Source: Xanthomonas campestris pv. campestris str. ATCC 33913 (GTDB lineage Bacteria; Pseudomonadota; Gammaproteobacteria; Xanthomonadales; Xanthomonadaceae). Taken from it: a stretch of DNA of 32,000 nucleotides. Location: assembly GCF_000007145.1 (NCBI RefSeq), contig NC_003902.1:1507436-1539435 (forward strand), read 5' to 3'. Positions 1 to 31,561 of this stretch are shown piece by piece. How positions within the stretch are numbered: position 1 is the first letter of the stretch; each line of letters begins with the position of its first letter. The notes under the pieces are model-generated. The model was not told the DNA's origin, did no database searches, and worked only from the letters and a program-made list of their open reading frames with translations. The position numbers and the translations under genes are program-made.

Positions 1-465
1 CAGCAGCAAGGCCAGCGATTCGGGCGTAGTGACCAGGACATCGAGCTTGCCGCTGCGGGCCAGGCGTTTGTCGCGCGCGCTGGCGTCGCCGGTGCGCAGG
101 CCCACCTGCCAATCCAGGCCCAAGGCCTCCACCGGTTCGCGCAGGGCACGCGCGGTATCGGCAGCGAGTGCGCGCAGCGGGGTGATCCACAGCACCTGCA
201 GGCTACGCTGCGGCTGCCGCCGGCCACGTGCCACCGCCGTGGCCGGCGGTGTGCGTCCGCGTGCGGCCAGCGCTTCCAGCAGCGGGCCGCCAAATGCCGC
301 CAGGGTCTTGCCGCTGCCGGTTGGGGTGTGCAGCAGGCCGGATTCGCCATCCAGATAGCGCTTCCAGACATCGCGTTGAAACGGCAATGGCGCCCAGCCG
401 CGCTGCGCAAACCAGGCCCGCCATTGCTGCAACGGCGTGCCGCGCTGTGGCGGTGCCGGGCTCAC
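1..465 (-). CDS. lhr: Lhr-type ligase-associated DEAD/DEAH-box helicase, first 155 codons (gene runs off the left edge)
   Basis: Absent from the ORF track because it has no stop in the window. Hand translation from GTG at 465: VSPAPPQRGTPLQQWRAWFAQRGWAPLPFQRDVWKRYLDGESGLLHTPTGSGKTLAAF...KLDVLVTTPESLALLL. Walker A TPTGSGKT is present. A GTGA start/stop overlap links it to the upstream ligase. Confidence 0.85.
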   Translation of the reverse strand, partial: MSPAPPQRGTPLQQWRAWFAQRGWAPLPFQRDVWKRYLDGESGLLHTPTGSGKTLAAFGGPLLEALAARGRTPPATAVARGRRQPQRSLQVLWITPLRALAADTARALREPVEALGLDWQVGLRTGDASARDKRLARSGKLDVLVTTPESLALLL

Positions 466-2066
466 CGCGCCAGTGCCTGCAGGCTGCTCAGGTGGTCGGC
501 CTCGGCGAAGGGTTTGTCATGGCGCCAGCGCAGGATGCGCGGGAAGCGCACCGCAATGCCGGACTTGTGCCGCGTGCTGCGATTCACGCCTTCAAAGCCC
601 AGTTCGAACACATGGTGCGGCGTGACCGCGCGCACCGGCCCGAAGCGCTCGGTGGTGTTGGCGCGGATCCAGCGATCCAGTTGCAGGATCTCGGTATCGT
701 CCAGGCCCGAATACGCCTTGGCGATGGGCACCAGCGCGCCGTCGTGCCAGAGCCCGAAGGTGTAGTCGGTGTACAGCGTGCTGCGCCGGCCATGGCCGGC
801 CTGTGCGTACAGCAACACCGCATCGATGGTCAGTGGGTCGATCTTCCACTTCCACCAGTCGCCACGGCGGCGGCCGGATTGGTAGGGCGAACGCGCGCGC
901 TTGAGCATCAGCCCTTCAACGCCGCGCGCACGTGCATCCAATCGCACTTGCGCGGCGGCCTGCCAATCGGTGGAGTGCACCAGCGGCGAGGCGATGATGC
1001 GTGGGTCGGCGAGGGTGGCGAGCACGCGCTCCAGTAGTGCGCGGCGTGCGTGCAGCGGGCGCTCGCGCAGGTCTTCGCCGTCCAGTTCGAGCAGGTCGTA
1101 GGCGACCACGCGCGCTGGCGCCGCCGCCAGCGTCTTGGGCCCGGGCTTGAGCCGCTGGATACGCGTCTGCAGCGCGGTGAACGGCATCGGCAACAGTTGC
1201 TCTGGTTGCCAGGCCAGCAGCTCGCCGTCGATCACGGTGCCGTCTGGCAAGCCCATGGCAGCCTGCTCGATCTCTGGAAAGCGGCCATCCAGGCGTTCTT
1301 CGCCACGCGACCACAGCGCCGCTTCACCCGCACGACGCAACAGCTGCAGCCGGATGCCATCCCACTTCCATTCCAGCAGCCAGTCGTCGATGGCGCCCAG
1401 GCTCTCGACATCGGCCTCCAGCGGCGATGCCAGAAAAAACGGGTAGGGCTGCTGGCGGTCGCCGGGCAGCGCCTCATGCGTGAGCAGGTCGGCCACATAC
1501 GTGGCATGCGGGCGCCAGCTGCCGAGCATGCGCTGGGCAATGCGTGCGATATCCACGCCCGACAGTTCTGCCAGCGCCTGCTGCACCAACCGTTGCGACA
1601 CACCCACGCGCAGGGCGCCGGTCAGCAACTTGTTGAAGACCAGGCGTTCGTCGAAGGCCAGCGTGCGCCACGCCTGCACGATGCAGTGCTTGCGCACCGC
1701 CACGTCTTGATTGGCGATCGGCAGCAGGCGTTGTTCAATCCACTCGGCCAGTGACACATCCACCGCCTCGCTGGCTGGATCATCCAGCAGCAATGCCAGT
1801 GTTTCGGCCAGATCGCCCACGTGATCGTAGCTGTCGGCTACCAGCCAGTCGGCGATCCCGGCGGCCTCGGCGATCCACTCGCGCAACTCGCCGCTGGCGG
1901 CGATGCGCATGCGCGCACTGGCCACCTTGCCACCCGCCAACAGATACAGCGCCCAGGCCGCATCCAGCGGCGGCGCTGCGCGGAAATACGCCACCAAGGC
2001 GGCGCGCTTGTCGAGCGTGCCGGTGCTGCGGTCCAGGGTGCGGTACAGCGCCGCAAACCGCTTCAC
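462..2066 (-). CDS. ATP-dependent DNA ligase (Lhr-cluster type)
   Basis: ORF 462..2309. The adenylation motif EWKWDGIR (KxDG) is present. Family-typical N-terminus VKRFAALYRTLDRSTGTLDKRAALVAYF begins at GTG 2066. The 81 upstream in-frame codons are R/C/P-rich and do not look like protein. Confidence 0.88.
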   Translation of the reverse strand: MKRFAALYRTLDRSTGTLDKRAALVAYFRAAPPLDAAWALYLLAGGKVASARMRIAASGELREWIAEAAGIADWLVADSYDHVGDLAETLALLLDDPASEAVDVSLAEWIEQRLLPIANQDVAVRKHCIVQAWRTLAFDERLVFNKLLTGALRVGVSQRLVQQALAELSGVDIARIAQRMLGSWRPHATYVADLLTHEALPGDRQQPYPFFLASPLEADVESLGAIDDWLLEWKWDGIRLQLLRRAGEAALWSRGEERLDGRFPEIEQAAMGLPDGTVIDGELLAWQPEQLLPMPFTALQTRIQRLKPGPKTLAAAPARVVAYDLLELDGEDLRERPLHARRALLERVLATLADPRIIASPLVHSTDWQAAAQVRLDARARGVEGLMLKRARSPYQSGRRRGDWWKWKIDPLTIDAVLLYAQAGHGRRSTLYTDYTFGLWHDGALVPIAKAYSGLDDTEILQLDRWIRANTTERFGPVRAVTPHHVFELGFEGVNRSTRHKSGIAVRFPRILRWRHDKPFAEADHLSSLQALAR

Positions 2067-2292
2067 GGCGTTGTTTCCGCGCTGGCCAGCAGCGGTTTCG
2101 CGCGCAGACGCAAGGCAGCGCGGGTGAATGCACTCAACGCACGTGGGCGCCGTTGCGGGCGCGGTGGCCCCAGCGTGGCGGCGGGGGTGGCGCGATGCAC
2201 GCAGAAGGCCAGCGCATGCCGGCGAAACGCCAGTGCGCCACTCAGCCGGATCCGCGGCCGCGCGCGGACATAGCGGCGTGCAGGCAACGGAT

Positions 2293-3303
2293 TCATTCCT
2301 CGGCTCCAAAGTCGGTGCGGAAGGCTTCGGCGGCCACGCCGTGCTCGCGCAGGTGCTGGATCAACGCATCGGTGTTGCCATGCGTGGCGATGACCCGGCG
2401 CGCGCCGGTGTCGGCGATGGTGCGCAGCAGGTCGGGCCAGTCGGCATGATCGGACACCACAAAGCCACGGTCGTAGTTGCGTCGCCTCCGGTTGCCGCGG
2501 ATGCGCATCCAGCCCGAGGCAAAACCCTGCTGCGCATGCCGGAAGCGGCGAATCCACGGGCTGCCGGCCGCCGATGGCGGGGCCAGCACCAATTGCCCCG
2601 CGTAGTCGGCGCCGCGTGCGTGTTCGCTCACCGGTTGCGTCTCCAGCATGGCGATGCCGGCGTGCCGGTACACCTCCACGCCGGCGGCGATTGCGCCATG
2701 CAACAGCGCTGGCTGCGTGTCCCAGGCGCGCAATTCGGCAAGCACGCGCTGCGCCTTGCCCAGCGCATAGCAATACAGGATCGCCGCCTCGCCGCGCGCG
2801 GCGCACTCATGGCGCCAGGCCACGATATCGGCCGCCACCTGCGCGGTGTCAGGCCAGCGGTACACGGGCAGCCCGAAGGTTGCTTCGGTGATGAAGGTGT
2901 CGCACGGCACCACTTCGAACGGCGCGCAGGTGGGGTCGTGTTGGCGTTTGTAGTCGCCGGAGGCTACCCACACCTGGCCATCGACTTCGATGCGCACCTG
3001 CGCGGAGCCCAGCACATGACCCGCCGGATGCAAGGACACTCGCGCGCGTCCCAGGGTGAACGCCTCGCCATTGGCATGCGGGTGATAGACCTGCTCGCCC
3101 AGCCGCCATTGCAGGATCGGCAGGCTTTCGCGCGTGCAGTGGTACTCGCCCATGCCGCCGCGTGCGTGGTCGCCATGACCATGCGTGATCACCGCGCGCG
3201 GCACCGGCCGCCATGGATCGATATGGAAATCGCCTTGTGGGCAGTACAGCCCTTCGGGCCCAAGCACCACCAGATCGCCGCGTGTGTCATTGCCGTTGTG
3301 CAT
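2293..3303 (-). CDS. Ligase-associated DNA damage response exonuclease (metallo-beta-lactamase / beta-CASP fold)
   Basis: 336-aa ORF with the MBL motif ITHGHGDHARGG. It lies in the same strand cluster as the ligase and Lhr helicase. Confidence 0.88.
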   Translation of the reverse strand: MHNGNDTRGDLVVLGPEGLYCPQGDFHIDPWRPVPRAVITHGHGDHARGGMGEYHCTRESLPILQWRLGEQVYHPHANGEAFTLGRARVSLHPAGHVLGSAQVRIEVDGQVWVASGDYKRQHDPTCAPFEVVPCDTFITEATFGLPVYRWPDTAQVAADIVAWRHECAARGEAAILYCYALGKAQRVLAELRAWDTQPALLHGAIAAGVEVYRHAGIAMLETQPVSEHARGADYAGQLVLAPPSAAGSPWIRRFRHAQQGFASGWMRIRGNRRRRNYDRGFVVSDHADWPDLLRTIADTGARRVIATHGNTDALIQHLREHGVAAEAFRTDFGAEE

Positions 3304-4737: not shown

Positions 4738-6474
4738 TCAAACAATTGCGCCGTTTGTGCCAACCGGTTCGGCATTCACCGCCACCGCCCCGTGCCGTTC
4801 CACCCGGTTGCGGCCCTGGCGCTTGGCCACGTACAGCGCGGCATCGGCCTTCTGGATCAAGGCCGATCCCAGCTCGCCATCGGCCGGGAAGCTGGCCACG
4901 CCGATCGACGCGGTGACCCGTGGCAGCGCGCGCTGGCCGTCGCTGACCGCCAGCGCAGCAATGTGGCCGCGGATCTGTTCGGCCACGCGCATCGCTTCCT
5001 CGCCGTCGGTTTCCGGCAGGATCACGGTGAATTCCTCGCCACCGTAGCGGCAGGCCACGTCTTCGGCGCGCAGGCGGGTGAGCAGCAATTCACCGACTGC
5101 GGCCAGCAATAGATCGCCGCCGGCATGGCCCTGGCCGTCGTTGAACTGCTTGAAGTGGTCCACATCCAGCATCAGTACCGACAGCGGCAGATCACGGCGT
5201 GCGCAGCGCGCCAGTTCATGGCTGAGCGCTTCTTCCAGGTAACGGCGGTTGTACAACCCCGTCAGCGCATCGCGGATGGACTGACGGCGCAGCGATTCGC
5301 GCAGACGCAAATTGCTCAAGGCCAGCGACAACTGCTCGGCGGCCGCTTCAGCGATCTCCAGGCGGGGCATCGGCGCCGGGCCGGGCGCGGACAGGAACAG
5401 AAAACCCAGCTGCGTGCCCTGTGCCGACATCGGCAGGCACGCGGTGGTGATTGCCACGCTCGCATCGGGCAGGTCGATGTGCGCGCACGGCGCATCGCGC
5501 GCCAGGTCTTCGATCAGGTGGGGCTGGCCGCGGCGCAGTGCCCAGCACTCTTCGGGCAGCAGGTGCGAGGCGCTGTGCACCAACGGCGTGCCCCAGTGGC
5601 TGATCACCTCGGCGCGGTCCTGCGAGGCGCGCAGCAGATACACGCTGCCGGCAATGCCGGGCAGCAAATGCGCGAGCGTGCGGCTGGTGACATCCAGTGC
5701 TTCTTCGGCACTGACGCAACTCTGCAGCAGGCCGGTGTAGCGGCTGAGCAAATTGAGATCGGCCGCGCTGCGCTGCAGGGCGCCGATGCTCTCGCCCAGT
5801 TCCTGGTTGGCACGTGCGGCATGCCGCTCGGCCTGCGCGCGATGCCGCAGTTCGCGCATCAGCAGGCCGTACACCGTGCCGACCACGGCCAGCCCTAACG
5901 GGATGCCGGCCAGCGCCAGGATCAGCAACAACAACGCACTTTGGCGGCTGCTTTCCGCACGCAATGCCAGCAGCTCCTGCTCGCGCTGCACCATGGTCAG
6001 TGCCTGTTCGCGGATGACGCTGGTGGTGCGAAACGCGGTCTGGCGAATGCTTGTACGCGCCGGCTCCAGGCCGCTGTCGGCGTAGACGTCGAGCACGTGC
6101 TGAATCTGTTTGAGCCGCGTGTCGACCAGATGATGCAGTTGATCCAGATGCGCCACCTGCGAAGGGTTGTCGGCGATCTTGCGGCGCAAGTTGCCGATCA
6201 GGATCGGCAGCCGCTCCACGCTGGTCTGATAGTCCAGCAGGTACGCGTCATTGCCGGTGAGCAGGTAGCCGCGCTCGGCCGATTCGGCATCGAGCACGCG
6301 CGCCTGGATCTCATCGACGCGGCCAATGACTTCATGCGTATGCGAGACGAGCGCGGCATCGGCGAGGGAGCGGCGCGCACCGATGAAGATGCCGATCCCG
6401 ATCGCAATAAAGATGAGCGCAGAGAAGACCAGCGCCAGCTGATTGCGGCGCCGCGAGGTAAAGGAAGAAGGCAT
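4738..6474 (-). CDS. Diguanylate cyclase with TM-CHASE3-TM, GAF and GGDEF domains
   Basis: 578-aa ORF. CHASE3 signature VSHTHEVIGRVDEIQARVLDAESAERGYLLTGNDAYLLDY lies between two TM segments. A GAF-like middle region is present. The C-terminal GGDEF domain has the active site RYGGEEF. Confidence 0.9.
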   Translation of the reverse strand: MPSSFTSRRRNQLALVFSALIFIAIGIGIFIGARRSLADAALVSHTHEVIGRVDEIQARVLDAESAERGYLLTGNDAYLLDYQTSVERLPILIGNLRRKIADNPSQVAHLDQLHHLVDTRLKQIQHVLDVYADSGLEPARTSIRQTAFRTTSVIREQALTMVQREQELLALRAESSRQSALLLLILALAGIPLGLAVVGTVYGLLMRELRHRAQAERHAARANQELGESIGALQRSAADLNLLSRYTGLLQSCVSAEEALDVTSRTLAHLLPGIAGSVYLLRASQDRAEVISHWGTPLVHSASHLLPEECWALRRGQPHLIEDLARDAPCAHIDLPDASVAITTACLPMSAQGTQLGFLFLSAPGPAPMPRLEIAEAAAEQLSLALSNLRLRESLRRQSIRDALTGLYNRRYLEEALSHELARCARRDLPLSVLMLDVDHFKQFNDGQGHAGGDLLLAAVGELLLTRLRAEDVACRYGGEEFTVILPETDGEEAMRVAEQIRGHIAALAVSDGQRALPRVTASIGVASFPADGELGSALIQKADAALYVAKRQGRNRVERHGAVAVNAEPVGTNGAIV

Positions 6475-6617: not shown

Positions 6618-6953
6618 TCAATGCTGCGCGTCGTGCTCGGCATTCTTTTCGGCCGCATTCTGCTCGGCCTTGTTGGCCATCTCGCGGGTCTTGTCGGCAG
6701 TGGCATCGGCGGCGTTGGCGGTAGCGCGGCTGGCGTCGGCGGCCAGGTCGCGTGCGGCGACGCGTGCATCGGCAGTGGCTTCCTTGGCCTGCACGGCAGC
6801 GCGGTCGGCGGCCTGCTCGGTCGCGGCGGCAGCGTGCTTTGCGGCAGAGGCGGCATCGCGGCGTGCCTGTTCGGCATCCGGGCCCTGGCAGGCGGCGAGG
6901 GTTACCACAGCAACAGCAACGGCGCTCAGCGACAGCATGCGGATCTTGTTCAT
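6618..6953 (-). CDS. Ala-rich low-complexity lipoprotein
   Basis: Within ORF 6618..7037. Start set at ATG 6953, giving MNKIRMLSLSAVAVAVVTLAAC (lipobox LAAC), with AGGA 5 nt upstream. The mature part is almost entirely A/D/E/K/Q/R/T. Confidence 0.75.
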   Translation of the reverse strand: MNKIRMLSLSAVAVAVVTLAACQGPDAEQARRDAASAAKHAAAATEQAADRAAVQAKEATADARVAARDLAADASRATANAADATADKTREMANKAEQNAAEKNAEHDAQH

Positions 6954-7142
6954 GGGTGGGTCCTGTTCCGGTTCCGATTGGAAAGCGGAGCTTATGCAGA
7001 CCCGGATGCAGCCGGTGTCAATGCCGCGAGGCCGCACTCAGCTGCGCGAACAGAAGCGGTGGAGCCGCAGTGCGGTTACGCGCGCATAGATACGCGTTGG
7101 GCAGTACGCGTGGACGTGAGGTGGGCAACACTCAACACCCAG

Positions 7143-7175
7143 GCAAAGAAAAAGCCGCTGGAAACCAGCGGCTTT
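7143..7175 (-). terminator. Rho-independent terminator after the 7205..7546 lipoprotein gene
   Basis: 8-bp GC stem GCCGCTGG/CCAGCGGC (7154-7161 / 7165-7172) with a 3-nt loop. On the minus strand it is followed by TTTTTCTTTG. Confidence 0.8.
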
Positions 7176-7204
7176 CTCCGAACGCGCTTGGAGCTAAGAA
7201 GTGA

Positions 7205-7546
7205 TTACTTCTTGGCTTCTTCAGCGGTGTCCTTAGCAGCTTCGGCGGTGTCTTCAGCCGTCTTGGCAGCGTCAGCAGCCTGGTCAGCAGCAGCGTCGGT
7301 GGCGGCGCCGGAAGCAGCCTGGGCAGCGTCAGCAGCGGTGTCAGCCGAAGCAGCGGCAGTGTTGGCAGCAGCCTGAGCGGCGTCAGCCGACTGCGAGCCC
7401 GAGGCAGCAGCCTGGTCAGCAGCGGTCTGAGCGTCGGTTGCAGCTTCGTTAGCCGAAGCAGCAGCGTCCTGAGCCTGTTCCGGCTTCGAGCAAGCGGTCA
7501 GGGCCAGGCCCAGAGCCATTGCGATCAGCAGCTTGTTGATGGTCAT
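7205..7546 (-). CDS. Ala/Asp/Thr-rich low-complexity lipoprotein
   Basis: 113-aa ORF starting MTINKLLIAMALGLALTAC (lipobox LTAC), with GAGGA upstream and its own terminator. The mature region has no hydrophobic core and is internally repetitive at the DNA level. Confidence 0.8.
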   Translation of the reverse strand: MTINKLLIAMALGLALTACSKPEQAQDAAASANEAATDAQTAADQAAASGSQSADAAQAAANTAAASADTAADAAQAASGAATDAAADQAADAAKTAEDTAEAAKDTAEEAKK

Positions 7547-15234: not shown

Positions 15235-15828
15235 TTAAGGCGAATGGAACCCGCTGGTCTCGCGCCACCGCCGGGTGGTGCGCTGGAAGAACAGGCTGTT
15301 GGGCACCTGCAGGACGCTGCCAGCGTGGTCGCCGGTTTCTTCCAGTGTGGTGTAGATCACATTGATGTCGATGACGCGGCCCTTGAGGCCCGGCTTGTCG
15401 CCGCCTTCGAGCAATTCGATGTGGTCGTGCAGCCGGAACGGCCGCGTGGTGATGATGAGGAACGTGCAGAAGATGTTGGACAGCACGCTCCACGCAGCGA
15501 AGAACGCCACCGCACCCACCGCCGCAAATCCTGTGAACGCCGTCCACAACGTGCCGGCGGAGACGCCAATCACGTGCAGCACCATCAATAGCGCGCTTAC
15601 CGAAATGATGAAGCCGCCCGTTCGCCGAATGCCAATCATCATTTCGGCCGGCACGCTGTAGCGCGTGCACAGGCGTTTGAGCAGTTGGCGCAAGAGCAGC
15701 CGGATCAGGCCCGCGACGGCGAGGATCACGACGATCTTGACGGCGGGCACTGCGACATCCAGCCACTGCGGGTTCCAGTGCGGCAACAGACTACGGATCA
15801 TCGCGGGAAGGGGGTCGGGTGCAGCCAT
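15235..15828 (-). CDS. Small mechanosensitive channel (MscS family)
   Basis: 197 aa with three TM helices followed by IITTRPFRLHDHIELLEGGDKPGLKGRVIDINVIYTTLE (MscS beta domain). Confidence 0.8.
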   Translation of the reverse strand: MAAPDPLPAMIRSLLPHWNPQWLDVAVPAVKIVVILAVAGLIRLLLRQLLKRLCTRYSVPAEMMIGIRRTGGFIISVSALLMVLHVIGVSAGTLWTAFTGFAAVGAVAFFAAWSVLSNIFCTFLIITTRPFRLHDHIELLEGGDKPGLKGRVIDINVIYTTLEETGDHAGSVLQVPNSLFFQRTTRRWRETSGFHSP

Positions 15829-15895
15829 CAGCTCAAGCGGATACGTGGGGGAGCCTAGTGTAACGGGCTACTCCCTGCGCAATGGGTGCGTGGGC

Positions 15896-16041
15896 TAAGA
15901 GCAGCTATCAAAACTACTGCGCAGCCGCCAGGCGGGCGCGGCCGGTGCTCGGAATCCTCATGTACCCACGTACATTCCGGTTCCTCCGCGCCGTCCGCAC
16001 CCACCTGACGACTGCTCGCTACGTTTTGTCAGCCGCTCTAA
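15896..16041 (+). mobile_element. MITE copy 1 (140 bp, 15899-16038) with TAA/TAA target duplication
   Basis: GAGCAGCTATCAAAAC...GTTTTGTCAGCCGCTC. The whole element is an imperfect palindrome centred on ATGTACCCACGTACAT. It is flanked by TAA on both sides. Confidence 0.85.
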
Positions 16042-16189
16042 ATGCGCGCTCATCTGCGTGTGCTGTGTGGTGCAGTGATCCATGGTCAAACGCGTGAAGC
16101 GCTGCGGTCGTGGGCCTGGGATGGCCGCTGCAATCGCTGTCATGCGGCAGGAGTGCCCTTCGTTATGGGTGTCGGGTCTTGGCAGTGCA

Positions 16190-16447
16190 TTACCGTCGCT
16201 GTAGATGCATCGCCTGATATTCCCGGAGATCGAACACGGCCTGCCAACTGTCGCGCAGGGTACGCACGGCGCCCCAGTGACTGGGCGACGGCACGTGCAC
16301 ACAGCGCGGTGTCGCAGCGCTGCTTGCGGGCAGCACGCAGGCTTCCACGCGCTGTGGGCTGAGCGATAGGCGTAAGGCGGCCGTGGGCAGCGGGCCAGGG
16401 CAGTGGGTCGGGCACAGGCTCAGCAGCAAGCCAACGATGAGGGTCAT
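16190..16447 (-). CDS. Hypothetical 85-aa protein with hydrophobic N-terminus (weak call)
   Basis: Internal ATG of ORF 16190..16726. This frame has the highest third-position GC of those I checked by eye. N-terminus is MTLIVGLLLSLC. There is no SD and I recognise no homology. Confidence 0.25.
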   Translation of the reverse strand: MTLIVGLLLSLCPTHCPGPLPTAALRLSLSPQRVEACVLPASSAATPRCVHVPSPSHWGAVRTLRDSWQAVFDLREYQAMHLQRR

Positions 16448-16570
16448 GCGGATAACGCCAGGGCGGGGCCGCCCAGGACAGCGGCGCGACGCTGTGCAAT
16501 CGAAGCCTTCGATGCGCCCTGCGCCAGAAAGGTTTAGAACTCCGGTAGAAAAATGGCTGCGTCGGGCGTA

Positions 16571-16710
16571 GAGCGGTGAACCAACGTAGTGAGCAATCGC
16601 CAGGCGGTTGGGGGCGGTGCGGAGGAACTGGCGTGTACGGGCAGATATGCCGATTTCGGGCGTCTGCCGCGCTTGTCTGGCGATTGCGCAGTCGCGTTGA
16701 TGCCTGCGCT
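16571..16710 (-). mobile_element. Divergent MITE copy (same subfamily as the copy at 31383)
   Basis: Aligns by eye along its whole length to the adjacent copy, with many substitutions. Its right flank is the TAA at 16711-16713; its left flank is GTA. Confidence 0.6.
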
Positions 16711-16855
16711 TAAGAGCGGCTAACAAAACTTAGCGAGCAGCCGTCAGGTGGGTGCGGACGGCGCGGAGGAACCGGAGTGTACGTGGGTACATGCCGATTC
16801 CGAGCACCGGCCGCGCCCGCCTTGCGGCTGCGCAGTAGTTTGATAGCTGCTCTAA
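16711..16855 (-). mobile_element. MITE copy 2 (139 bp, 16714-16852, inverted) with TAA/TAA duplication
   Basis: Reverse complement of copy 1 with about 8 differences counted by eye. It ends 32 nt upstream of the ECF sigma ATG. Confidence 0.85.
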
Positions 16856-16887
16856 ACCTTTTTGCTGCCCGGCGCATCGAACTGGCT

Positions 16888-17475
16888 ATGCTCGATACCA
16901 CCGTGCCCCCCGATGCCCCCGCTTGCGACAGCCCCGCCGACCGCGACGATGCGGCATTGGCGCGTGCAGCCGCGGCAGGCAGCCGTTCGGCGTACGAGAC
17001 GATCTACCGCCGCCATGCGCCACGCCTGTATGCGGTGGTGTGGCGGTTGTGCGGCGGCAACGCCGCCCGTGCCGACGATGCCTTGCAGGAGACCTTCATC
17101 GCCGCCTGGAAGGCCTTGCCGCAGTTTCGCTTTCAAAGTGCCCTGGGCACCTGGCTGCATCGGCTGGCGGTCAATACCGCCTTGATGGAGCTGCGTCGCC
17201 GCGCACATTCGCGCGATCACGAGCTCGACGATGCCGATGGCGAATTGCTCGCGGCAATTCCTGGTGCTTCGTCCTGCCAGGCCACTCAAATGGATCTGGA
17301 ACGCGCGCTGGAGACCCTGCCGCCACGCGCGCGTGCGGTGCTGGTGCTGCACGACATCGAGGGCTGGAAACATCATGAAATCGCCGAAGAACTGCAGATG
17401 GCGGTCGGCAGTTCCAAGGCGCAACTGCATCGCGCACGCGGCCTGTTGCGTGCGCGGTTGGGAGAACCCGTATGA
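16888..17475 (+). CDS. ECF-type RNA polymerase sigma-70 factor
   Basis: Region 2 (YETIYRRHAPRLYAVVWRLCG...DALQETFIAAWKAL) and region 4 (LPPRARAVLVLHDIEGWKHHEIAEELQMAVGSSKAQLHRAR) are present. The start at ATG 16888 is chosen by family length. The upstream part of ORF 16777..17475 is MITE sequence. Confidence 0.85.
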   Translation: MLDTTVPPDAPACDSPADRDDAALARAAAAGSRSAYETIYRRHAPRLYAVVWRLCGGNAARADDALQETFIAAWKALPQFRFQSALGTWLHRLAVNTALMELRRRAHSRDHELDDADGELLAAIPGASSCQATQMDLERALETLPPRARAVLVLHDIEGWKHHEIAEELQMAVGSSKAQLHRARGLLRARLGEPV

Positions 17476-22938: not shown

Positions 22939-22979
22939 GCCGCGATCTAGAGCGCTTGTTGGATCTGGAACGCGTTGTA

Positions 22980-23041
22980 GGAGCGCGCTTGCGCGCGATG
23001 GGGTGTTACCGGTGACGCCCCATCGCGCGCAAGCGCGCTCC
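22980..23041. repeat. REP-type extragenic palindrome, 24-bp perfect stem
   Basis: GGAGCGCGCTTGCGCGCGATGGGG - 14 nt - CCCCATCGCGCGCAAGCGCGCTCC, between convergent genes. Confidence 0.85.
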
Positions 23042-23080
23042 GACGTCACCGGGTCTATATCGCGACGTCGGACAATCCGC

Positions 23081-24175: not shown

Positions 24176-24321
24176 TTAGAGCAGCTATCAAAACGACTGC
24201 GCAGCCGCCAGGCGGGCGCGGCCAGTGCTCGGAATCGGCATGTACCCACGTACATTCCGGTTCCTCCGCGCGGTCCGCACCCACCTGACGACTGCTCGCT
24301 ACGTTTTGTTAGCCGCTCTTA
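24176..24321 (+). mobile_element. MITE copy 3 (140 bp, 24179-24318) with TTA/TTA duplication
   Basis: About 6 differences from copy 1 counted by eye, in the same orientation. Confidence 0.85.
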
Positions 24322-27129: not shown

Positions 27130-27375
27130 CGGTCGCCAAGTTGAAAAGGAGAAAATGCGTACGTCGCGATCTTGCCGATGACGTAGGCCTCCCAGCGATG
27201 GTGGCGGACTGATCTGTATTCGAGGCTGCACCGATGGGACAGTGCGTCTTTTGTAACGTGTTTCAGCGCATTCTGTGAAGTGTCACGAGGCATGTGCTGA
27301 ACCAAGGCGATGGCGCGCCTTTCGCCAGATGCTGCATTGCACAATAATGGGCGGCTCGCCATTGTGGACCCGGGC

Positions 27376-28584
27376 ATGTCTTCCAACGATGCTTCAACGC
27401 CGCGCGTGCCTCGCCGCGACTACGTGCTGATCTTGCTGGCACTGGCGATGGGCGGGTTTGCCATCGGCATCAGCGAGTTCTCCACGATGGGCCTGATGAC
27501 GCAGATTGCGCACGGGCTGCACATCAGCGAGCCGCAGGTGGGGCATGTGATCAGCGCGTACGCCCTGGGTGTGGTGGTGGGTGCGCCGCTGCTGGCGATC
27601 CTGGGTGCGCGCTGGCCGCGACGCACCTTGTTGCTGCTGCTGATGGTGTTCTATGCGCTGGGCAACCTCGCCAGCGCATTGGCGCCGAGCTACCACACCA
27701 TGTTGCTGTGCCGCTTCATTGCCGGCCTTCCGCATGGGGCGTATTTCGGTGTGGCCTCGTTGGTGGCGGCGTCGATCAGCCCGCCCAACCAGCGCGCCAC
27801 TGCGGTGGGGCGCGTGTTGCTGGGCCTGAGCGTGGCGCTGCTGGTCGGCAACCCGTTGGCCACCTGGCTTGGCCAGAGCCTGAGCTGGCGTTGGGCGTAT
27901 GCGGCGGTGTCGGTGATTGCGTTGGGCACGGTCGCGGCAGTTGCGGTGTTGCTGCCACCGGCACCGGACGAACCGCGCCAGCAACCCCTGCGCGAGATGC
28001 GCGCGTTCAATCAGCCGCAGGTGTGGTTTGCGCTGGCAATTGGCGCGGTAGGTTTTTCCGGCATGTTCTGCGTCTTCAGTTATCTGGCGCCCACGCTCAC
28101 CGCCGTGACCGGTGTGGCGCCTGCGCGCATTCCGCTGGCCATGGCGGCCTTCGGCGTAGGCGGCGTGCTCGGCAGCATTCTTGGCGGGTGGTTGTTCGAC
28201 CGCATGCAGTTCCGCGCGGTGCCGGTGTTGCTGGTGTGGTCGATCGTGGTGATGTTGACCTTCCCGTTGGCGGCGTTGTCGAGCAGCTGGGTGTTCGTGT
28301 CGATCGTGGCGGTCGGCACCATGGGCGCACTGGCACCGGCCCTGCAGACCCGGTTGATGGACGTGGCCGCAGAAGCGCAAACCCTGGCCGCCGCGTCCAA
28401 CCATGCCGCGTTCAACACCGCCAACGCGTTGGGGCCGTGGCTGGGGGGCATGGCGATCACGGCGGGGTGGGGCTGGACCTCCACCGGCTATGTCGGTGCG
28501 GCCACCGCACTGGGCGGCTTGTTGGTCTACAGCTGCGCGGTGTGGCAGGAACGTCGCCAGCGCGCGCTGGCAGCCAGCTACTAA
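27376..28584 (+). CDS. MFS transporter (DHA1, AraJ/YdhP-like)
   Basis: 12-TM profile with LALAMGGFAIGISEFSTMGLM...YALGVVVGAPLL. The start at ATG 27376 is chosen by family length; 27310 is also possible. Confidence 0.85.
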   Translation: MSSNDASTPRVPRRDYVLILLALAMGGFAIGISEFSTMGLMTQIAHGLHISEPQVGHVISAYALGVVVGAPLLAILGARWPRRTLLLLLMVFYALGNLASALAPSYHTMLLCRFIAGLPHGAYFGVASLVAASISPPNQRATAVGRVLLGLSVALLVGNPLATWLGQSLSWRWAYAAVSVIALGTVAAVAVLLPPAPDEPRQQPLREMRAFNQPQVWFALAIGAVGFSGMFCVFSYLAPTLTAVTGVAPARIPLAMAAFGVGGVLGSILGGWLFDRMQFRAVPVLLVWSIVVMLTFPLAALSSSWVFVSIVAVGTMGALAPALQTRLMDVAAEAQTLAAASNHAAFNTANALGPWLGGMAITAGWGWTSTGYVGAATALGGLLVYSCAVWQERRQRALAASY

Positions 28585-28636
28585 GAGCGTCTAACAAAAC
28601 CTGGCGGCTGCGCAGTAGTTTTGATAGCTGCTCTAA
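28582..28636 (-). mobile_element. 49-bp internally deleted MITE derivative (28585-28633) with TAA/TAA duplication
   Basis: Both terminal repeats are retained (GAGCGTCTAACAAAAC ... GTTTTGATAGCTGCTC) and about 90 internal bp are missing. The left TAA is the MFS stop codon. Confidence 0.75.
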
Positions 28637-31382: not shown

Positions 31383-31523
31383 GCCACGCGCAGCGATCAA
31401 CACGATTGCGCAGCCCCCGGGCGGGCGCGGCCTGCGTTCGAAATCCTCACTCATCCCCACACGCTTGGCTTCCGCCGCGCTGTCCGCACCCGCCTGACGA
31501 TTGCTCGCTCCATTGAGTGAGCG
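31383..31523 (+). mobile_element. Divergent MITE-family copy abutting the HD gene stop codon
   Basis: It shares the blocks TGCGCAGCCCCCGGGCGGGCGCGGCC, GAAATCCTCA and GTCCGCACCCGCCTGACGATTGCTCGCT with the 140-bp element. Its termini are degenerate. Confidence 0.55.
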
Positions 31524-31561
31524 TTCCAAGGCCCAGTCAGCCTGCGCGGTACACTTGCCAC

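Follow-up and report, generated by a model that had tools for sequence, protein, structure and literature searches.

The window considered here is a 32,000-nucleotide stretch of the genome of Xanthomonas campestris pv. campestris ATCC 33913. It has a G+C content of 66%, and the proteins that it encodes are exact matches to X. campestris pv. campestris proteins. Within its 32 kb are found six copies of a palindromic, non-coding repeat (Table 1). Three of these, referred to as A, B, and C, are full-length elements of 139-140 bp with GAGC...GCTC ends that are 94-96% alike. Copies A and C are 95.7% identical (6 differences) and copies A and B are 94.3% identical (8 differences), with copy B also missing one base in its left end. 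The copies are located between called genes and are covered by no gene or Pfam match. An initial annotation of this DNA, made from its letters alone, had recognized the three full-length copies. Its coordinates, its estimate by eye of about 6-8 differences, and the identical trinucleotides that it read on either side of A, B, and C all agree with our measurements. That tally was incomplete, however, as it missed the degenerate copies B' and D and a 49-bp internally deleted copy.

Table 1. Positions of the repeat copies in the window, of insertion sequences with matching ends, and of examples of other element families
Feature	Sequence	Position	Strand	Length	Flanking trinucleotides	Further details
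Copy A	Window	15899-16038	+	140 bp	TAA at 15896-15898 and 16039-16041	sX9 half at 15960-16034
Copy B	Window	16714-16852	- (inverted)	139 bp	TAA at 16711-16713 and 16853-16855	sX9 half at 16718-16792 (-)
Copy C	Window	24179-24318	+	140 bp	TTA at 24176-24178 and 24319-24321	sX9 half at 24240-24314
Copy B'	Window	16571-16710	-			Degenerate, older; about 73% identity to A; in tandem, head-to-tail, with B
Copy D	Window	31388-31526	+			Degenerate; about 77% identity over 133 nt; terminal repeats and duplications decayed
Internally deleted copy	Window	28585-28633	-	49 bp	TAA at 28582-28584 and 28634-28636	Both terminal repeats kept
IS	Cupriavidus taiwanensis plasmid (L007)	2504-3368		865 bp	TAA/TAA	Ends GAGCGGCTAACAAAAC and GAGTCGCTAACAAAAC
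IS	X. citri pv. phaseoli var. fuscans plasmid pF (L020)	2004-2867		864 bp	TAA/TAA	Ends GAGCCGCTAACAAAAC and GAGTCGCTAACAAAAC
IS	X. campestris (L213)	146-1013		868 bp	TTA/TTA	Ends GAGCGTCTAACAAAAC and GAGCGGCTAACAAAAC
IS	X. populi (L214)	1946-2813		868 bp	TAA/TTA	Ends GAGCGGCTAACAAAAC and GAGCGGCTAACAAAAC
Other-family element	L093	444-574
Other-family element	L110	5951-6081
Other-family element	L182	1985-2115

The family consensus carries the 16-bp sequence GAGCGGCTAACAAAAC at both of its ends, and a variant of the left end, GAGCAGCTATCAAAAC, is common to the three full-length copies and the 49-bp copy. When up to three mismatches are permitted, the 16-nt terminal motif occurs seven times in the window, in comparison to the 0.14 occurrences expected from shuffled sequence. 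All four intact copies (A, B, C, and the 49-bp copy) are flanked by 3-bp duplications, and the single TAA that separates B' from B is common to both of these copies. Each copy is predicted to fold as one long hairpin centered on ATGTACCCACGTACAT, which had also been proposed initially. For copy A, the predicted folding energy is -72 kcal/mol on the plus strand (z = -8.6) and -92.6 kcal/mol on the minus strand (z = -9.9), where the z-scores are relative to shuffled controls and both values lie far below those of the shuffles. The 32-kb window encodes no transposase gene, as was noted at the outset.

The surroundings of the individual copies vary. The left TAA of the 49-bp copy forms the stop codon of an MFS transporter gene (27310-28584), whereas copy D does not abut a stop codon, there being a TAG stop 5 nt upstream of it. 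Three short-read Logan assemblies from this same organism (L002, L003, and L006) end about 45 bp past the MFS gene, inside the 49-bp copy, which is consistent with a break at a multi-copy repeat. The B' and B pair is bracketed by a 31-nt inverted repeat (84% complementary, 16508-16538 and 16851-16881), and so these two copies sit in the loop of an older palindrome. This palindromic region is found in a divergent arrangement, between a gene for an 85-amino acid protein (16190-16447, minus strand) and an ECF sigma-factor gene (16888-17475, plus strand).

Members of the family were sought in other bacteria, using one genome per species, with a two-ended pattern that consists of GAGCNNCTNNCAAAAC, a spacer of 93-123 nt, and GTTTTGNNAGNNGCTC, and in which the flanking bases were left free. 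An earlier, one-ended pattern, TNAGAGCNGCTAWCAAAAC, had matched 71 stretches on viral contigs, but in nearly all of these no second end was present, and they have the appearance of conserved but unrelated sequence, which is why the two-ended form was chosen for the genome scan. The scan listed at least 120 stretches with 121 elements, and the counts for individual species are lower bounds. Among the matches listed there are at least 61 intact copies of the family, drawn from 19 species genomes and 83-95% identical to copy A. The largest numbers were found in X. populi (at least 20), X. vasicola (at least 7), X. dyei and X. codiaei (at least 5 each), X. prunicola (at least 4), and X. hortorum (at least 3), with fewer copies in X. 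axonopodis, X. phaseoli, X. bromi, X. maliensis, X. cissicola, X. arboricola, and other Xanthomonas. Again among the matches listed, the family extends beyond this genus to Dyella lipolytica, a Rhodanobacter MAG, Pseudomonas sp. EpS/L25, and P. oryzihabitans.

The initial annotation had anticipated that the target duplications would recur elsewhere, and they do. Identical trinucleotides flank 50 of the 61 family members among the matches listed, 28 of them as TAA/TAA and 22 as TTA/TTA, and in most of the other 11 the two flanks differ at one base. Since the duplications are always TAA or TTA, the target can be described as T-W-A. The search pattern demands two intact ends, and the sample is therefore skewed towards young copies.

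A BLAST search of plasmids with the terminal 38 nt of the repeat returned exact 19-nt matches, TAAGAGCGGCTAACAAAAC, that adjoin annotated IS5-family transposase genes. Insertion sequences with matching ends, of 864-868 bp, are present in X. campestris, in X. populi, on an X. citri plasmid, and in the Burkholderiales (Table 1). In X. populi and X. campestris, the end of the repeat and the end of the IS are identical at 16 of 16 positions. TAA or TTA is found on both sides of all four IS copies that were read, and in three of these the two flanks are the same. The transposase is encoded in two open reading frames with a -1 frame offset, indicative of a frameshift. Its match to NCBIfam NF033580 scores 254 bits (cut-off 110), and it also matches the Pfam families DUF4096 and DDE_Tnp_1. 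Close relatives that share 81-99% identity are found in X. fragariae, X. axonopodis pv. vasculorum, X. translucens, X. oryzae, X. vasicola, X. hortorum, X. populi, X. albilineans, and X. citri. The IS5-family element with the same ends that the initial annotation had suggested does exist, therefore, including within Xanthomonas itself. The proposed assignment to an IS1031/IS427-like subgroup came close: the IS5 family is upheld, but the sequence sources name these transposases IS1421, tis1421, or IS402-like, a type that we take to belong to the IS427 group of the IS5 family in ISfinder.

The relationship between the repeat and the IS is confined to these features. The IS is 864-868 bp long and encodes a frameshifted DDE transposase, whereas the repeat is 140 bp long and non-coding; what they have in common is the 16-bp GAGCGGCTAACAAAAC repeat with its GAG ends and the 3-bp TAA/TTA target that is duplicated. 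Beyond the 16 terminal bases they share nothing, the 108-bp interior of the repeat being unrelated to the IS. It follows that the repeat did not arise simply by deletion from the present IS, and the partnership is drawn solely from the ends and the target. X. populi possesses the IS and also the most copies of the repeat in the sample (at least 20 of the 61 among the matches listed). Within the X. campestris data, the IS was found on one short contig only (GCA_035011585.1), and most strains of this species may currently be without the mobilizing transposase. A tblastn search for the IS in the fetched loci that carry the repeat gave a weak (28%) IS5-like match in one X. populi sequence (L097) and a fragment in another sequence (L099). 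The former is a distant IS5-like coding region (4930-5667), with 28% identity to the Cupriavidus transposase, and adjoins a copy of the repeat at 5705-5846.

Direct evidence for movement comes from a comparison of strains. The region equivalent to window positions 5235-25828 (about 20 kb) was compared in ten X. campestris pv. campestris assemblies from NCBI, nine of which are chromosome-scale, at about 5 Mb, and the tenth a 222-kb contig. Every one of these genomes carries copies A, B', and C. Copy B, which the window contains, is also found in four of the assemblies (L011, L012, L017, and L018) and is absent from the other six (L010, L013, L014, L015, L016, and L019). The filled allele reads AAAAAGGT-TTA-[139 bp]-TTA-AGCGCAGG and the empty allele reads AAAAAGGT-TTA-AGCGCAGG, with a single TTA, after which both alleles continue into the same right flank (also given as AGCGCAGGCATCAA). 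The difference in length between them is exactly 142 bp, which equates to the 139 bp of the element and the 3 bp of the duplication. The locus of copy B is thus a classical empty site with one copy of the target, and this target is a TTA that adjoined the old copy B' before the insertion. The presence/absence polymorphism among relatives that would be expected of a mobile element is accordingly seen.

Two other origins for this arrangement were considered. Generation of the empty allele through recombination between B and B' is unlikely, as the copy that remains is B'-like from its first base, and the origin of B and B' as a tandem duplication is excluded, since the two are only about 75% alike. 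In one of the filled assemblies (L011, 9039-9258; GCA_000589995.1, CM002558.1) B and B' seem to be fused: about 80 bp are absent, and the junction contains an N. Such a structure resembles an assembly gap or a collapse at the tandem repeat rather than a biological allele.

The age of the insertion is less clear-cut than its structure. Over the 20 kb, the presence of copy B and the local SNP distance do not go together: 72 SNPs separate the empty L015 from L012, which is filled, whereas the filled L018 is about 360 SNPs away from the window. With such a patchy distribution, a single recent insertion is not the sole possible history, and an old insertion that was spread by recombination, a precise loss, or the repeated use of the same site are all possible. 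The description of the family as recently active, which was made initially, is therefore upheld with respect to mobility, on account of the empty site, but weakened with respect to recency. A softer statement, that the element was active within the diversification of the species, is more appropriate.

A palindromic, intergenic, multi-copy sequence with a strong potential to form hairpins also brings to mind the REP and BIME repeats, structural sequences that would not be mobile as a unit but would be spread by recombination or by a RAYT-type enzyme. REP/BIME repeats, however, are palindromes of 20-40 bp without target duplications, whereas the repeat described here is 140 bp long and has 16-bp terminal repeats identical to the ends of a DDE-type IS. 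This difference, together with the duplications that surround most of the copies listed, the precise empty site of copy B, and the absence of a RAYT-like gene anywhere in the sequences at hand, makes such an origin extremely improbable.

The right half of the repeat turns out to be a sequence that is already catalogued; the initial annotation had not recognized the element as a described family. Positions 62-136 of each full-length copy match the entire 76-nt Rfam model RF02228, "Xanthomonas sRNA sX9". The gathering score of this model is 44; the three full-length copies reach 95.8, 94.0, and 90.9 bits, and copy B' gives a weak match of 30 bits. The Rfam consensus for sX9 is the same as the family consensus that was built in this analysis, and the RNA extends from the center of the palindrome to 4 nt short of the end of the element. 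Rfam thus models the right half only, as an sRNA gene, whereas the complete element is mobile and possesses both terminal repeats and target duplications. The identity of the sX9 family as the right half of such an element is what is new here, the sequence family itself being known. Our literature search found no paper that treats sX9 or the 140-bp sequence as a transposable element, nor one that describes a similar MITE in Xanthomonas.

As sX9, this sequence has acquired a literature of its own. Work on X. campestris pv. vesicatoria that combined dRNA-seq with a northern blot detected an RNA of about 75 nt (Schmidtke et al. 2012, PMC3300014), and sX9 is among the twenty most often annotated bacterial sRNAs (PMC9029176). 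Several "sX9 sRNA genes" are reported to be induced by copper in X. campestris pv. campestris (PMC10924375), and one sX9 is listed as an essential, non-disruptable ncRNA in a Tn-seq study of X. citri (bioRxiv 10.1101/2023.08.03.551896). These observations, along with a match to RF02228 that is far over the threshold, could be taken to mean that the functional unit is the sX9 gene, with the copies representing paralogues that are kept for regulation and with the palindrome and its ends being incidental. We consider this to be quite unlikely. The unit with the terminal repeats, duplications, and empty site is 140 bp long, of which the sX9 RNA covers only the 3' half, and this RNA lies on the strand that folds less well. 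Its original dRNA-seq support amounts to 2 and 1 reads (PMC3300014). No promoter-like or terminator-like consensus was detected in or beside A, B', and B in the region scanned (15700-17000), and for copies A and B this takes in the sequence that precedes the start of sX9. The orientation of the copies to the neighboring genes looks random, and the apparent essentiality of a multi-copy repeat in Tn-seq is an outcome that multi-mapping reads would be expected to yield.

The 140-bp repeat is, in our view, very probably a non-coding, non-autonomous MITE of X. campestris that borrows the transposase of an IS5-family (IS1421/IS402-type) element, and sX9 is the 3' half of its hairpin. This is the reading to which the empty site of copy B, the duplications in other genomes, and the IS with the same ends all point, in agreement with the MITE proposed by the initial annotation. 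A transposase supplied in trans by the IS would bind the 16-bp ends of the MITE and insert it at a T-W-A sequence (TAA or TTA), duplicating 3 bp in the process; the choice of this particular IS as the mobilizing partner is deduced from sequence comparison. As the 108-bp interior is palindromic, any transcript that passes through a copy would form a long hairpin. From its extent, running from the center to near the end of the element, and from the lack of a promoter or terminator consensus in the region scanned, we infer that the 75-nt sX9 RNA is most likely a stable 3'-arm fragment of these read-through hairpin transcripts rather than the product of a dedicated gene. The label sX9 for one half of a MITE is probably misleading.

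There is one property of the family that a purely selfish element leaves unexplained, and this is the better fold of the strand antisense to sX9. In 63 of 64 copies this is the more stable strand, the mean advantage being 12 kcal/mol. The differences between the two arms are found mainly at positions where they give rise to G:U pairs on the antisense strand, and one-sided changes that keep the pairing exceed A:C breaks, although this is by counts of cells that are not independent events. An alignment of the 64 copies indicates that the hairpin has been kept, with compensatory changes at six pairs. Furthermore, for 9 of 65 copies the site coincides exactly with the TAA stop codon that ends a long, high-GC3 open reading frame, in comparison to 5.9% of all the TAA sites in the same loci.

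These observations would fit with a co-opted MITE, in which selection keeps a G:U-tolerant hairpin RNA, antisense to sX9, as a structured module that could act, for instance, as a stabilizer of mRNA 3' ends or as an RNase target. However, all of the copies descend from one master ancestor, and so the strand asymmetry can be inherited rather than selected. The copies that abut a stop codon are oriented without bias with respect to the upstream gene (4 sense and 5 antisense), and no terminator-like tail was seen in the scanned region. Moreover, since the duplicated TAA retains the stop codon of the gene, such sites are probably tolerated rather than sought. Co-option is thus an unlikely explanation. 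If it were true, insertions at TAA stops would provide genes with a ready-made 3'-end hairpin, and the sX9 annotations would mark a genus-wide, transposon-delivered layer of post-transcriptional control.

As a MITE that depends on an IS, the element has a number of counterparts. Bacterial MITEs that are mobilized in trans include Nezha in cyanobacteria, MITEPsy in Pseudomonas syringae, and the Correia elements in Neisseria. These are small, non-coding, intergenic, and hairpin-forming sequences with terminal repeats and short duplications, and MITEs of this type have often been detected as "small RNAs". The Xanthomonas MITE differs from them in its sequence, in its partner IS, and in its hosts, which are Xanthomonas, Dyella, Rhodanobacter, and some Pseudomonas. 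A further comparison is offered by a 113-bp MITE from an Eleftheria terrae plasmid (L009 2504-2616, NZ_CP106952.1), which has the same 16-bp ends and TAA/TAA flanks but an unrelated interior; on the two plasmids of this organism, the terminal query found 7 and 6 matches. A clear MITE/IS pair with a T-W-A target adds to the short list of well-supported bacterial MITEs. It brings no new mechanism to light.

The main value of these findings is as a correction to annotation, given that sX9 is called as an sRNA gene across Xanthomonas genomes and has been interpreted biologically. If sX9 is half of a multi-copy MITE, then the sX9 annotations need to be relabelled, and the expression and Tn-seq results at these loci need to be re-analyzed in a way that takes account of multi-mapping reads. 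The MITE is probably also a cause of breaks in short-read assemblies, and can be used as an insertion-polymorphic typing marker for X. campestris strains.

About half of the matches listed in the genome scan (within L093-L212) have GAGC..CT..CAAAAC termini but belong to other families, with lengths of 125-154 bp (Table 1). Among the matches listed, their hosts include Verrucomicrobia, delta-proteobacteria, Methylococcales, Acidobacteria, and a MAG labelled Bathyarchaeota. Many of these elements have a 2-bp duplication of arbitrary sequence, one base outside the GAGC, rather than T-W-A, and this points to a different IS subgroup. Within the window itself, two further repetitive features are present. 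One is a 68-bp near-perfect palindrome (22977-23044), with 34-nt arms that are 91% complementary and no spacer, which occurs once in the window. The other is a set of GCAGC-rich imperfect repeats (6798-7464), with spacings of 18, 21, 33, and 39 nt, in a region where long open reading frames overlap on both strands and which probably encodes a low-complexity, Ala-rich protein.
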